A stretch of 64,000 nt of DNA, from assembly GCA_905215805.1 (NCBI GenBank), contig CAJMRL010000003.1, positions 124,066 to 188,065 of the forward strand. Reading direction: 5' to 3'. The number at the start of each line of letters is the position of its first letter. Within the stretch, counting starts at the first letter, position 1. Position numbers: made by a program. Origin of the DNA: an uncultured bacterium. Lineage in GTDB: Bacteria > Bacillota > Clostridia > UBA1381. Below, piece by piece: positions 24,001-33,000 of the stretch.

Positions 24001-27000
24001 TGTACATAAGACCGGACCGGCATTAAGATTTGGTTCAATATCCTTCCATAGCTTTCCGAATTTATCCTTATAAACAGGTAAATCGAAGTCGTCGTTGCCC
24101 AGATAAGTTAATGTGAGTTTCATTTTTTTACTCCTTTCAGTTGCTAAGTTTATAGATCCTTTAGTTCCATAGAATTCTTTCAGGTGTGAACTGGATCTCT
24201 GCATTCGCATATTTTTTCATATCAGACATCGGAACATCTGACTCTCCATCGAAATCATTTCCGTTTGATGTACACAGTTCCGGTTCGTACTGCCTGCGCG
24301 GATTAACGTCTTTCCAAAGGGTTCCGGTTTCATCTTCGTAAACCGGTCGGTCCCAACTATCCATGCCTAAAAATTTTAAAGTAATTTTCATAATATTTCT
24401 GCCTCCAAAAAAGTTCTGCACTCAAAAATATTGATTTGATTTTGCTTATTCATAAAGATTCTATTCTTGGCAATGTGTCATCCCAATTGGGGCTGTAAAA
24501 ACAGCCCCATTGAGATAAGAGTTTTAATTCTATGTATTTAATAATTCCGACATAGCCGTCAGCAAGCATCGATATCAGGAACATTTACAATTTCAATAAT
24601 CATAACATCTTCTGACTCGAAAATGCCGTTGCATCCGCATTTACATGCAATATTACCGTTTTCAATTACAATACCATGACAAACATCCTCTTCATGCTCA
24701 TCCAAAAGATTACTGAATAGAAGTTCTGTTCCAGCTTTTAAGGATCTTACATCTTCGTTAAAACATTGAAATGTTTTTGCACAGCGCAGCATGTCATAAT
24801 TATCGAAAATACACCGTCCACTGATTCCATATACATCACCTGCAAAGTAACATCCAGGTTCTTCATAATGAAGTTTGAAGGAAAGTGACGGAAACATTTT
24901 AACGACTTGTTTTAACCACTCGCATGGCGGTGACCATGCCGTATCAAAGTCAAAACGAATAAATTCACAGCCTTTTGTCCACCCCATCAATTCAGGTGTA
25001 ATCTTATCATAATAGATATCCCACTTCGTTCCCCAATTTTGGATACTCCAGTGATACCCATCTATAGGAGAAACCTTTTCACCTCTAATTAATCTGCGAT
25101 AAACGTCTGCTGGAATTTTTTCATGACCATCAAACCCAATATCCAATATTTCTTTTGGAGTAGGGACAAGTGCATTAAAACAAAAATATTTGTTATTATG
25201 CTTCTCCTGTCCATTTAAGCAATCTTCTTTTTCTGAAGGACTGGGTAGATACTGAGCGGGTAAGCCCATATTTGCAAACACGAATTTTTCTAAAGTTTCT
25301 GCATTGCCGTATACCGACAAATTATTTATACACCAATTTGGCATTGTTATTAGACCTCCTCTTAATTATGATAATCAAACATTACAAGTGCCCAATCTTC
25401 AGGGCTTTTTGTTATTTCTTCAATATCAGATGGGTACAGCCGCGCAGTATATTCATGAGAATTATAGAACAATGAATCGCTCTCATAATCCCCGTGGAGA
25501 ATTGAAGCTATATTGCTTAAATAATAAGCAGTCATACAAGAGAAACCTTCTGAATTATCCGAATACTCTTTCAGATTCCATGTCCCGTCAATGATTTTTT
25601 CCAAATCCGTACCGACGGTACACTTAAGAGCAGATAAAGCATAATCAATATGATTTTTTTGCTCCTGTAAGATCTCTGAAAGTTCATCAGAAAAACGCTG
25701 AATATCATCCAATGCAAACAGCACATTTTGTGGATATATATTTTGCCAGCGCCCTGCTGTCTCCGTTTCACGCCAGTCAAAAATAGATTCATAGTATGAC
25801 TCTGTTCGTTGTTCGGCACACAAACGAATCTCATTTGCGAGTTCTGATTTCTCTATAGCCCCAAGTTCTTCCATAACATCCGGGATGTAGACTAAAATTT
25901 TATGTAAATAATGCATAATGAAACTCCTTTCACCGTTATACCCTTATATGCCGCTTCACAACAGCAGTCAGTTTTGTGGGCAATTGATTCAGGTCGGTAA
26001 TATCCAAAAAGGAATCACCGTATATTCGCTCGATATTTTCTTTGTCGTCCCCGATTGCGGCAGCGACAAAGATAATGCCTTTTCTTTGGTATTCATGTTT
26101 GATCCCACGCAGATCCTCTTCAGCTTCCGTGCCATAATAGCCATTATCGGCAGGCTGCCCGTCAGATACAAGAATCAATATCTTGACTGCCTCAGGACGT
26201 TTTGACAGTTGTTCAGCAACAAAACGCAATGCAGCGCCGTCGCGGTTACTGCCTCTGGCTCCAATATCCATCATTCTATATTTGTCATCGTTGTCAAAGC
26301 CGTCAAACTCAGCATAAGAATACATCTCAACGCCTTTATATGACGTCGAATGCCCGTATACCATTACAGGGATTCCTAAACTCTGACAAAAGTCATAAAG
26401 GATGATAGCCGATGCCCTTGCGTATGTACAACGGTCACATGAATGCATAGATCCCGATTCATCAAGCAGCAATCCCACTGTAAGTTCCGGAATTTCATTC
26501 GGCAGAGAGTTTTTATAAAAGACTTTGCCGTCATTTCTGCATAATGCATGGGTGTCCAGTCTCCGTCCCATAAGCAAGCCGGTTTGTTTTCCACCGCGTC
26601 TGTGTTCTTGGAGTTGCTTTGTTAAGCTTCTCTGCAGCTGCCTTGAAATCGTCAGAAGCGGACCGGATATCTGCTGATATTGCTCAATTAGTTCTTCGTC
26701 CACACTGGCGATACGATTGATCTGGATGGACACACCCGAATGAATATCACCATATGAAATGTTTTGAGCAACATCATTCAGTTCTCTGATGCGTTCGTTT
26801 TCCAGTTCTTCACATGCTGCTTTTTCAGCCATTTTATCAAGTATCCGTTCAATGTCTGCCGCAGCTCCGTCATACTGTTCGCGTTCATAAGACTCGTTTC
26901 TCTCTACAGTACCGCCGGTCGGAACAGAAATATGTTCGCTTTGGCGATGCGGCATTCTTCCGGTTTCGTTTTCAGACACTCCCTGTTTTCCGGGGTTAGC

Positions 27001-30000: not shown

Positions 30001-33000
30001 TCACCTTTTTGTTTTTTAAAGTGTCAAATGGTTCCGGTAGGCTACGGCTGTAATTAAAAAGATTTTTTATGTATGTACTCATCGTTCATTCCCTTTCTGC
30101 AGCTTACTGCAATAAATTGATTTTGATTCCTTCTGGGACTACTGTTACTTCTTCGATATCGGCTCGTTTTAATTCGCGGCAAATATCCGGCCAGCTTTCG
30201 GAAACCGGCAGTTCATCTGCTTGTAACAGCAATTCTGTGATCCCATGACCAATTGCTTCGTTACAACGCTCATTCAACTCAATGATATGTGCGTCAACCC
30301 ATTCAAAAGCAATCAGTTCATAGTTCTCGTTCTGCTCTTCCGGGCTTATTTCAGCATCGGATTGTTCCGGTTTTTGCTCTGTTTCAGCTGCTTCATTTGA
30401 TTGTGCAGTCTGGTATTCCACTCCAAGCACCTGTAGGTTACGGATGATCACTTGTGCTCTCCGGTATCCACCGGCCCTGTTGAGCAGTATAAAAACATTC
30501 TCGCCGTATTCAATCATCTGTTTGGCATTGGGTGCCTCCCAGATCCACCGTGCCTCAGGATATTCTGCTGTTACCAATTCGGTAATGCGTCTGAGTATAA
30601 CACGGTAAGCAAGTTTTTTTACATCTTGCTCAGTAGGCATTTTTGCCGTTTCTATCTTCGATGGAACTGTCTTCACCGGTTCTTCTGTTTTTGAAGAATG
30701 ACCAGGCAGTTTTATGATTGCAATGCATCCACCGATGAGTATGAGCAGAAAAAGAGGCCAAAGCCCGCACATAACCGTCAAAACAGAAAGTATAACTAAT
30801 ACAATCAGCGTTTTGAAAACCATGCTTTTCTTTTGGTCCTTGTCACCCATTCGTCAAGCCTCTCCTTTCCGAATACGGCTCTGCGGGATATAGATATGAA
30901 TAATATCCACGCTATTTCTTGTGACATATGCGGCTGCATGTGATCCGTTAAAATAACGATCCGAAAGTCCAGGGACACCTGCAATTGCACTGCCGAGGAT
31001 TGTTTGACTCCGACCCGGATCTGCCAGAACAAGACTTTTCCTAAATTCGTTTGGTTCATTGTAGATGCGGATTACATATTGTTTTTGTAAAGAAACAAAT
31101 GCCATGATCGCCTTTATTTCTTCTTCGGTTATATAACCTCCGCTTCTATTTTTCAGAACCGTCTTAAGTTTGGTGGTTCTTTCTTCATCTGAAAGAATAG
31201 AGAATGCCTCATTCACCATAAAAATCCCTCCTTAAAACGCAAAAAGGCGCACATAAAATCACGAAACCGTAATTTATGTGCGCCTGATATCACGCCAGAT
31301 TTGTTTTGTTGCCTGTCAGTTTTCATCAAAAAATGATGCGCCTCCAAAAGGCTCAAATCCCGTGAAATTCTCGGGCATTTGTTGACTGCCAGACTGTGAC
31401 TGTGCTGAGGAGGGAGCTGCAGCATTTTGCTGCTGACTCTGTTCAGGATCTGTCTGGTTCTCTTTTGGTTTATTTCCACCGCCGGCAGCATACTCGATCT
31501 CATCCAGAATAATTACCATCATACTCTTGGTTTCATTGGTATTCTGGTCTATCCAAGTATCCTCATCCAGCCTGCCAATCAAATTCACAAACGATCCTTC
31601 CTTGAGCTTCATCTTTTTGATCCGCTCGCAGACAGTACCGAATGCTTTGACTGTCATGTTTACCCAACGGGTATTGTTTTCGGCATGCGTATCATATACC
31701 TTTTTGCCGAAGCGAAACCTTACCGATTCTCCGGTTTCAGAGAACCTCAGAGCCGGTGCGCCGTCAAATCCTTTGGAGATAACGACGTCTGTTGCAAATA
31801 CTTTTAACATAAGAAAAACTCCTTTCTTGCAGGGATTGCCTGCTATAAAAAATATATTTATTTCAACCTGCTTTCGCAGATAGAAACCGATGAAAATAAA
31901 AAAAGTGCCAACCGACGCAAAATGCATCAATTGACACTTTGTAAACTATGCTACTATGGATTCCTATCGGAAAACCGTGAAACTTATATATTTATTATAG
32001 CATATTTATTGAAAGCCGTCAATCCATTCTAATAACTTATCGGGAAATACTTTTTAAAATCTCCGTTTTTACAAAGTCAAGTGCGACCAATACCCTTACA
32101 GCATCAAACTGGAATGATCCATCTGTATTTTCATTATTTTGAATCAAGTCCCTGATTTCATCAAGGATTCTGTATATTTTCTCTTTTTCTGTATTCATGT
32201 TCATACTCCTTCCGCACTTCTAATGCATAGTAGCTATAGATAATATAACTTCCATCATCCTCGTATACAGGTGTTTTTTCCGATAAATACACAGTAACAG
32301 TATCTCCCTCTTTGATTGTTTGTACTCTTTTTTGTATCGGCAGCTTTAGGTTTTTTCCGTCCACCATCAATATGATTGATTTGATCTTTTTACGGACGCG
32401 TTTTGTGAGAACCTCTACACAGGTCCCTTCCAGCATGAGATATTTATTTTCAATACAATTATAAAATAGAAATATCCCATAAGCAAACAGCACAAATGAT
32501 AGTAAGAAACAAGGCAGGCTAAAATATAGATTACGGTAATAAATCGACACAATGATAAACAGAAAAAACACCAATATTCCCATACCAAACCTAAGTATTA
32601 TCTGCTTTTGCAGCGCTGCCGGAATCTTGTTAAATTTATCTTTCAAAACTCGTACACCTCACACTACGACCACATACTTCTTTTTCAACAGATTTAGCAG
32701 TAAACCGACGACTCTATCTCGGCAAACGGCATATTCCATCTGATTTTCTAACACAGTATCCGTAATGGTGTTTGCGGTATAGATACGCTGTGTTAATGCT
32801 TGCCTGTTTCTTTTATATAACATACAAAATTTTGGCTGAACATTGTTTTCTTCTAAAAAAATAAGCTCTGCTGTACTTAAATGAATTCCGGCTTTTTTGA
32901 TCCAGCGCATAAGTTTTCGCTCCGTTCTGGTCAGAGAAAATCTGCGCGGAAGAAACTCCGGAACACAAAAGATACATCTTGTTAAAACACGATATTCATC

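Follow-up and report, generated by a model that had tools for sequence, protein, structure and literature searches.

A 64,000-nucleotide stretch from an uncultured bacterium of the Clostridia (GenBank assembly GCA_905215805.1, contig CAJMRL010000003.1, positions 124,066 to 188,065; hereafter the window) carries, inside a mobile element, a gene for a MoxR-class AAA+ ATPase next to a gene for a protein with a von Willebrand factor A (vWA) domain and an N-terminal HExxH motif. What does a mobile element do with such a pair? An initial annotation had suggested defence, counter-defence or element-specific protein remodelling. Here, we find that the pair is a clade-specific variant of a known motor-adaptor design, that of CobS and CobT, and we consider it on balance probable, if not strongly so, that the element uses it for its own propagation by remodelling, and probably cleaving, a client protein.

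Both open reading frames (ORFs) lie on the minus strand exactly where they had been annotated, the CobS-like ATPase gene at 28208..30082 (624 aa) and the CobT-like adaptor gene, encoding the vWA protein, at 25936..28179 (747 aa). They had been described as overlapping and co-transcribed. The overlap has to be dropped, since 28 nt separate the ATPase stop from the ATG of the vWA gene, and an AGGAGG read from the sequence as a ribosome-binding site (28191..28196, minus strand) sits in this spacer, 11 nt before the ATG; co-transcription still fits a spacer of this length. In a locus scan that took one genome per species, the best 80 of 280 confirmed loci were kept, from Lachnospiraceae, Oscillospiraceae, Ruminococcaceae and Christensenellaceae. 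The vWA protein, with its MIDAS motif (metal-ion-dependent adhesion site), is encoded adjacent to and co-oriented with the ATPase, and both genes are present in 80 of 86 loci.

Family matches place the two proteins together. The ATPase exceeds the gathering score of Pfam AAA_5 (31.7 bits vs 22, aa 289-336), in line with its annotation, and its match to PHROG 249, to which phage CobS-type proteins belong, reaches 1.9e-18; in the PDB it weakly matches chains of CobS, CbbQ and midasin. The vWA protein scores 45.9 bits against CobT_C and 24.2 bits against VWA, above the respective cut-offs of 21 and 23.8, and matches the CobT-type families PHROG 1576 and PHROG 17276, and its nearest PDB sequences are CobT and NorD, over the vWA part only. 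The annotated C-terminal vWA/MIDAS domain (DxSGS) was recovered as DESGS at aa 573-577 (26449..26463, minus strand), with D573 invariant and ESGS 91-97% conserved. The AAA_5, CobT_C, VWA and PHROG matches bear out the view of the pair as a MoxR AAA+/vWA couple of the CobS/CobT type. Database searches with the vWA protein gave 1983 relatives at E <= 1e-5, and close ones are found on the chromosomes of Blautia, Enterocloster and Bariatricus, where NCBI labels them NorD.

The N-terminal domain of the vWA protein (aa 1-320; 27220..28179, minus strand) is predicted to have a zincin fold, as had been suspected from its HExxH motif. HELGH lies at aa 101-105 (27865..27879, minus strand) and is followed by NVLEDGYIE at aa 168-176 (27652..27678, minus strand), which, going by its conserved residues, is a candidate source of the third metal ligand. 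Searching aa 1-330 against 1.84 billion representatives (E <= 0.001) yielded 878 clusters at 50% identity, mostly proteins of 620-880 aa with a like architecture. Of 69 diverse representatives of the family with a length of at least 560 aa, 68 have HExxH, and an alignment of 60 sequences, extending down to 23% identity, shows no variation at N76, H101, E102, H105, N168, E171 and D172; because of this conservation, the motifs of this MIDAS protein, HExxH included, are not due to chance. An AlphaFold2 model of the domain from the same alignment (predicted local distance difference test score 95.3, predicted template modelling score 0.92) runs from N-terminal helices through a three-stranded sheet (strands 53-57, 66-68 and 72-76) to a long helix bearing HELGH (88-108) and then into a helical bundle, whose first long helix (153-182) carries N168, E171, D172 and E176. 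As modelled, the HExxH region adopts a zincin fold with conserved catalytic-type residues, and the layout is that of a gluzincin, in which the HExxH helix comes after a beta-sheet and a helix further downstream carries the candidate third ligand. A like fold, with HExxH on an active-site helix after a three-stranded sheet, is seen in minimal gluzincins and M48-type peptidases (proabylysin, selecase, Ste24 and BepA), and the DNA-protein crosslink proteases Spartan and Wss1 resemble the domain in both fold and HExxH position. Model and invariant residues together thus speak for a peptidase fold. A Foldseek search of the PDB with the model returned nothing significant.

How such a domain might work with an ATPase is suggested by CobST. 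Brucella melitensis CobT consists of an N-terminal domain, a disordered linker of ~90-100 aa and a C-terminal vWA domain preceded by a 'shaft', and in its CobT_N, one helix, a three-stranded sheet and another eight helices form a structure like that of peptidase M48C; the shaft reaches into the CobS ring, the CobS small subdomain is where CobT_N docks, and the client CobN, which CobT_N contacts, is placed between the two CobT domains (bioRxiv 10.64898/2026.07.21.739949). The pair in the window is alike in that adjacent genes encode a MoxR-class AAA+ protein and an adaptor with a zincin-like N-domain, a disordered linker, a conserved segment and a vWA/MIDAS domain. Its linker (aa 321-445; 26845..27219, minus strand) is acidic and of low complexity, as annotated, with an isoelectric point of 4.26 and 26 Asp/Glu vs 8 Lys/Arg; across the family the linker is 38 to 271 aa long, with a median net charge of ~-17. 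The conserved segment ahead of the vWA domain (aa 446-565; 26485..26844, minus strand), with E460, L467, H480, R489, Y501 and G538 among its conserved residues, is by analogy probably the counterpart of the CobT shaft, the part that goes into the ATPase ring.

If the geometry of ring, shaft and clamp carries over from the CobST structures, the ATPase would form a hexameric ring that grips this segment, and the vWA-MIDAS and zincin-like domains, tethered by the disordered acidic linker of ~125 aa, would clamp one client protein between them. ATP binding and hydrolysis would then remodel the clamped client. The client would also be cleaved at the HExxH site, which we infer because HExxH and E/D make up a complete metal site in the N-domain, something that NorD and some plasmid relatives do not have; it is the invariance of this signature that points to proteolysis. 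The client would be neither CobN nor NorB, and the best candidates are g248, the membrane-anchored product of the gene just ahead of that for the ATPase, or a protein that acts together with the neighbouring genes for a single-stranded DNA-binding protein (SSB) and recombination.

The pair also differs from CobS/CobT in several respects. It has no CobN or cobalamin context, its N-domain shows no detectable sequence similarity, its HExxH/E-D site is intact and invariant, and its ATPase has an extra N-domain of ~220 aa and a Gln in Walker B. Scores against the NCBIfam equivalogs TIGR01650 and TIGR01651 are 21.6 bits vs 558.55 for CobS and 27 vs 759.05 for CobT, 20- to 30-fold below the cut-offs, and neither the annotated ORFs of the window nor the conserved neighbourhood in ~80 loci include a CobN or cobalamin gene. 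CobST proper was rejected on these grounds, and the pair is not a CobS/CobT orthologue in a complete cobalamin locus. It could still serve as a true cobaltochelatase auxiliary that hijacks a host CobN-type subunit and so raises cobalamin synthesis, which is how phage cobST is usually annotated (PMC8651126) and which the CobT_C and CobS-type matches would suit. However, the equivalog scores, the absence of any CobN or cobalamin gene from the window and the conserved neighbourhood, the extra ATPase N-domain and the altered Walker B make this extremely improbable.

NCBI's name for the homologues points to NorQ/NorD, which likewise couples a MoxR ATPase to a vWA adaptor and whose vWA domain is weakly similar. 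However, NorD of the S. meliloti plasmid pSymA is encoded in norCBQD, lacks HExxH and is dissimilar in its N-terminal half (hhalign of the N-domain profile against it gave 0.2% probability). With no nor gene at the pair, NorQD was rejected as well.

Within this class of couples, the zincin-like domain could also act without cutting, as a docking platform whose HExxH metal is structural or handed to the client, which would make the pair a metal-delivery or scaffold chaperone like CobST, NorQD and CoxDE. Characterised members of the class do insert metals into clients, CobT_N has a peptidase-like fold with no reported proteolysis (bioRxiv 10.64898/2026.07.21.739949), and a relative on an A. baumannii plasmid keeps the rest of the N-domain without the His residues. 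Against this, the general-base E102, both His and the downstream E/D pair are invariant, a full catalytic signature in a family of 878 clusters, and the conserved module holds no obvious metalloenzyme client, so that we regard metal delivery as unlikely.

The closest parallels come from phages and large plasmids. By hhalign, CobT of Roseobacter phage CRP-810 is aligned to the N-domain profile with 96.3% probability (E 1.9e-9), with HExxH and N-x-L-E-D-x-x-x-E in register and NVLEDGYIE opposite NALEDIWLE. The N-domain hidden Markov model also matches ~25 distant CobT-like proteins in IMG/VR (E 1e-5 to 1e-10) and a 749-aa protein of C. perfringens pJFP838A; hhalign of the profile against CobT of Vibrio phage ICP2 was negative. 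G97, H101, E102, H105, E171, D172 and G185 are invariant in a joint alignment with the phage CobT-like proteins, and on the strength of these alignments we regard the N-domain as homologous to theirs. Among 72 CobT-like vWA proteins in IMG/VR, 43 have an N-terminal HExxH and 39 have a CobS-like ATPase gene within 1.5 kb on the same strand, nearly always upstream. A check for co-occurrence in other phages and plasmids thus found homologous pairs in IMG/VR, ICP2, CRP-810 and pJFP838A. Those of CRP-810, ICP2 and pJFP838A also have an acidic linker, a MIDAS of the form DxSGS and, next to the vWA gene, one for an AAA+ protein, which at many IMG/VR loci is immediately upstream. Phage and megaplasmid pairs likewise lie among early or replication genes, adjoining primase, helicase or DnaE in ICP2 and pJFP838A.

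Such proteins have been noticed before: Iyer et al. described jumbo-phage MoxR-vWA pairs with an N-terminal metallopeptidase on the vWA protein (PMC7824862), and Liu et al. found cobST clusters to be widespread in tailed viruses and cyanophage cobT often to be annotated as peptidase (PMC8651126). The description of the metallopeptidase-vWA fusion as unusual is therefore not upheld, given the M48C-like N-domain of CobT, the published phage pairs and the 43 HExxH-bearing proteins in IMG/VR. What sets this clade apart from the phage and megaplasmid pairs is an insertion of ~50 aa between the HExxH and N-x-x-E-D-x-x-x-E motifs, an ATPase N-domain of its own, the exchange of Asp for Gln in Walker B, fixed linkage to an SSB and a small membrane protein, and carriage by integrated gut-Clostridia elements that show no virion genes. 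A profile of the clade's SSB found no SSB at 63 distant viral CobT-like loci, so either the SSB linkage is clade-specific or the profile is too narrow. Two plasmid loci stand somewhat apart. At L181 (7504-9732), on the E. faecium conjugative plasmid p114-2, a fused 742-aa AAA and vWA protein is 38% identical to the vWA part; it was rejected as an instance of the pair, being a different fused AAA-vWA protein. The 110-kb A. baumannii plasmid (L183) encodes a vWA protein and MoxR ATPase pair in which the N-domain lacks both His of HExxH.

The motor half of the pair has features of its own. An uncharacterised N-terminal extension of ~290 aa had been annotated; the extension is real, but its size comes to ~265 aa ahead of the AAA+ core, of which ~220 aa fold. 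This lineage-specific domain (aa 1-220; 29423..30082, minus strand) is predicted to contain one helix, a five-stranded antiparallel sheet and three helices, and no structural relative of it was found. Walker A, GPAGTGKT at aa 294-301 (29180..29203, minus strand), is conserved across 66 homologues, five of them with GPSGTGKT. The Walker B motif YVVEIQE at aa 445-451 (28730..28750, minus strand) is non-canonical, with Gln450 for the expected Asp and Glu451 kept. Every clade member has E[ILV]QEP here, the distant loci L088 and L108 included, in contrast to the canonical DE (hhhhDE) of ~25 other viral CobS-like ATPases and of ICP2 CobS. The TTN sensor-1 region, GCR and DRM are conserved along with Walker A and the catalytic Glu, and the median identity of the ATPase is 73% across 70 relatives.

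In several relatives the ATPase gene is interrupted by group II introns of ~2.7 kb (L009, 6424-9161; L082, L038, L026 and L027), which use three insertion sites, one of them exactly after the Walker B codons ...EIQE. The L009 intron matches Rfam RF02004 and RF00029 and has a 630-aa intron-encoded protein. Exon 1 read through into the intron accounts for many database 'proteins' that are 456-457 aa long and end in QERA[TI]RS. The ATPase gene of the window has no intron interruption. We count the introns in the relatives' ATPase genes in favour of the motor-adaptor reading.

The setting of the pair bears directly on whether it serves the host, the element or a conflict between them. The window is bacterial chromosome, since its flanks encode HydF, FtsW, proteins with S-layer homology (SLH) domains, a two-component system, an ABC permease and an M13 peptidase, and the closest genome locus, 98% identical, belongs to a metagenome-assembled genome of an uncultured Lachnospiraceae bacterium. 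The mobile-element module spans ~9.9 kb to 35.2 kb of the window, nearly all on the minus strand. It starts with a Zn-ribbon/transmembrane (TM) protein, g193, g161 (TM), the SSB, g121, g248 (TM), the ATPase and the vWA protein, and continues with variable cargo including g184, DUF1281_C, two small paralogues, an orphan N6/N4 methylase and ATPase_2/DUF234. Then follow g403, a YqaJ exonuclease, DUF7768, an SprT-like Zn-ribbon protein, a RecD2-like helicase and a Rad52-like protein, and the module ends with DUF3854, a ParM-like actin, a helix-turn-helix protein and a sigma region-4 fragment. The neighbours given in the initial annotation are all there, the SSB gene lying upstream and those for DUF1281_C, a DNA methylase and the two small paralogues coming after the pair, and its placement of the pair in a mobile element rather than in host metabolism is likewise sustained, the pair lying inside the element with no cobalamin locus.

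The order g193-g161-SSB-(g121)-g248-AAA-vWA-[variable]-(methylase)-g403-YqaJ-DUF7768-RecD2 onwards is conserved in ~80 Clostridia loci, and in a 37%-identical relative, on a 'Bacteriophage sp.' scaffold from faeces, SSB, a g248-like gene, ATPase and vWA still follow one another in this order. Median identities of the relatives' proteins to those of the window are 73% for the ATPase and 65% for the vWA protein, on par with YqaJ (74%), RecD2 (67%) and the methylase (75%) and above the SSB (55%) and the small proteins g248 (50%), g193 (43%), g161 (41%) and g121 (37%); g403 is at 69%. In relatives, between 0.3 and 8.8 kb separate the vWA gene from g403. From these identities and this variable distance, the pair sits in the slowly evolving core of the element, with a cargo slot directly after it.

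This position argues against a part in host-virus conflict. In vWA-MoxR ternary conflict systems, rare versions have a metallopeptidase at the effector position (PMC7159879), and a MoxR ATPase and a vWA protein are common to those systems and the present pair. However, here the two are the core pair of a mobile element and of phages, not of a host island, and neither a third component nor a PADLOC model applies to them. In PADLOC the vWA protein matched nothing, and the ATPase gave only weak P-loop matches to IetA (E 3e-4 or weaker); a third component, VMAP-like or other, was not found, nor were further effector or regulatory domains, and the neighbour g248 has no family match. An anti-phage defence of the conflict type with the peptidase as effector would resemble the rare configuration (PMC7159879), yet the pair is fixed in the element core, whereas the candidate defence gene PDC-S27 sits in the variable slot, and homologues are common in lytic phages. 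Taken with the PADLOC results and the missing third component, this makes such a defence highly improbable.

Counter-defence would have the pair expressed early after entry or induction and degrading or inactivating host immunity proteins, in the manner of the metalloprotease-bearing antirestriction proteins. Counter-defence genes usually vary, whereas few parts of the element are as conserved as the pair; homologous phage and megaplasmid pairs adjoin primase, helicase or DnaE, and neither protein is similar to any known anti-defence family. We therefore hold counter-defence to be quite unlikely. The defence or counter-defence role first proposed thus loses ground on three counts: the negative PADLOC result for the vWA protein, the lack of a third component, and a place in the slowly evolving core instead of the variable cargo.

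A further possibility is a chaperone for virion or particle assembly that proteolytically processes structural proteins. A MoxR-vWA pair of the Acidianus two-tailed virus reportedly has a role in particle assembly, and several contigs carrying the present pair are in IMG/VR. The proposal made for the jumbo-phage MoxR/metallopeptidase-vWA pairs concerns a like architecture (PMC7824862). However, neither the window element nor a ~37-kb IMG/VR contig that runs from the operon start to three serine recombinases was found to have a capsid, portal, terminase or tail gene, and the pair genes sit in a DNA-metabolism operon, which leaves particle assembly very unlikely. Relatives occur both in IMG/VR and in two GenBank 'Bacteriophage sp.' scaffolds, with no structural gene found. 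Megablast of a 6-kb region against phage and plasmid collections gave no match; tblastn with the N-domain found none in plasmids and only the two unannotated faecal scaffolds among GenBank phages, and walking upstream from the operon in IMG/VR with a gene of L002 found nothing.

The g248 gene (30104..30850, minus strand; 248 aa, two predicted TM helices) ends 21 nt upstream of the ATPase gene and adjoins it in 74 of 86 loci, and likewise in the distant locus L088. It has no Pfam, PHROG, PADLOC or PDB match and is a candidate third component or client of the pair. The SSB gene (Pfam SSB; 31316..31810, minus strand) probably starts at Met41 (31810), the start of the listed ORF (31316..31930) being too far upstream; an SSB lies upstream in 73 of 86 loci and also heads the L088 cluster. 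Between g161 and this probable start are an 18-bp terminator-like hairpin (31940-31902, minus strand) and a strong promoter-like site (32022-31994, minus strand; 11/12 matches, extended TG). TM helices are predicted in g248, in g161 (32161..32646) and in the Zn-ribbon protein (33280..33666), all on the minus strand, and none of the three has a family match. Three operon proteins with predicted TM helices suggest that part of the module works at the membrane. The stronger proposal, that the pair, g248 and the element's SSB together make an ATP-gated protease module essential for the replication, establishment or transfer of a very widespread family of integrative elements in Clostridia of the human and animal gut, is speculative, and we would rate it as conceivable but on the doubtful side.

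Several observations weigh against the motor-adaptor reading with client cleavage. The N-domain profile found no CobT_N among PDB sequences, only a designed repeat protein. In some relatives, as on the A. baumannii plasmid, neither His of HExxH is left, and the domain can hence function without catalysis. The clade-wide exchange of the Walker B Asp for Gln may mean that the motor hydrolyses ATP slowly or in a switch-like manner. No virion or conjugation genes were seen in the element.

Other parts of the element and its surroundings are described here for completeness. The variable cargo slot (22396..25916, minus strand) holds g184, DUF1281_C (Api92-like), two small paralogues at 23893..24210 and 24161..24421 that overlap by 50 nt, and the orphan N6/N4 DNA methylase. 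The ATPase_2 and DUF234 gene (20874..22277, minus strand) matches the PADLOC candidate defence family PDC-S27 (6.9e-51), the only defence-type match among the module proteins; it is flanked by a terminator-like hairpin (22385-22358) and a promoter-like site (22331-22304), and looks like inserted cargo because it was found in only five related loci. In relatives, the module ends in three tandem large serine recombinases, which at L090 (13791-18819) and L095 (11982-19305) follow a 454-aa sigma region 4 protein. The window copy has no recombinase and just a 154-aa sigma fragment (9899..10363, minus strand) beside the host ftsW, and this end of the element appears decayed. Beyond the element, the window encodes on the plus strand (35823..47525) a metallo-beta-lactamase-fold protein, an alpha/beta hydrolase, a hexapeptide transferase, a flavin reductase, a chloramphenicol acetyltransferase (38336..38971) and a Y-family DNA polymerase (46002..47525). 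No tRNA genes were found in the window.

CobS/CobT-like pairs are among the most widespread unexplained phage genes and are routinely labelled as cobalamin biosynthesis without evidence. The clade described here is abundant in gut Clostridia, with 878 clusters at 50% identity and cultured carriers in Blautia, Schaedlerella, Bariatricus and Enterocloster, among them Blautia pseudococcoides, Schaedlerella arabinosiphila DSM 106076 and Bariatricus massiliensis AT12. Its intact metalloprotease signature and its fixed place beside SSB and recombination genes, together with the CobST structures as a template, make it a tractable test system. The finding would correct the 'NorD' and 'CobT' labels on thousands of proteins. 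If the pair is indeed a protease module, the phage 'cobS/cobT' genes now taken for cobalamin auxiliary genes would be client-specific, AAA+-coupled zincin proteases, and their clients would be DNA-replication-associated or host proteins.

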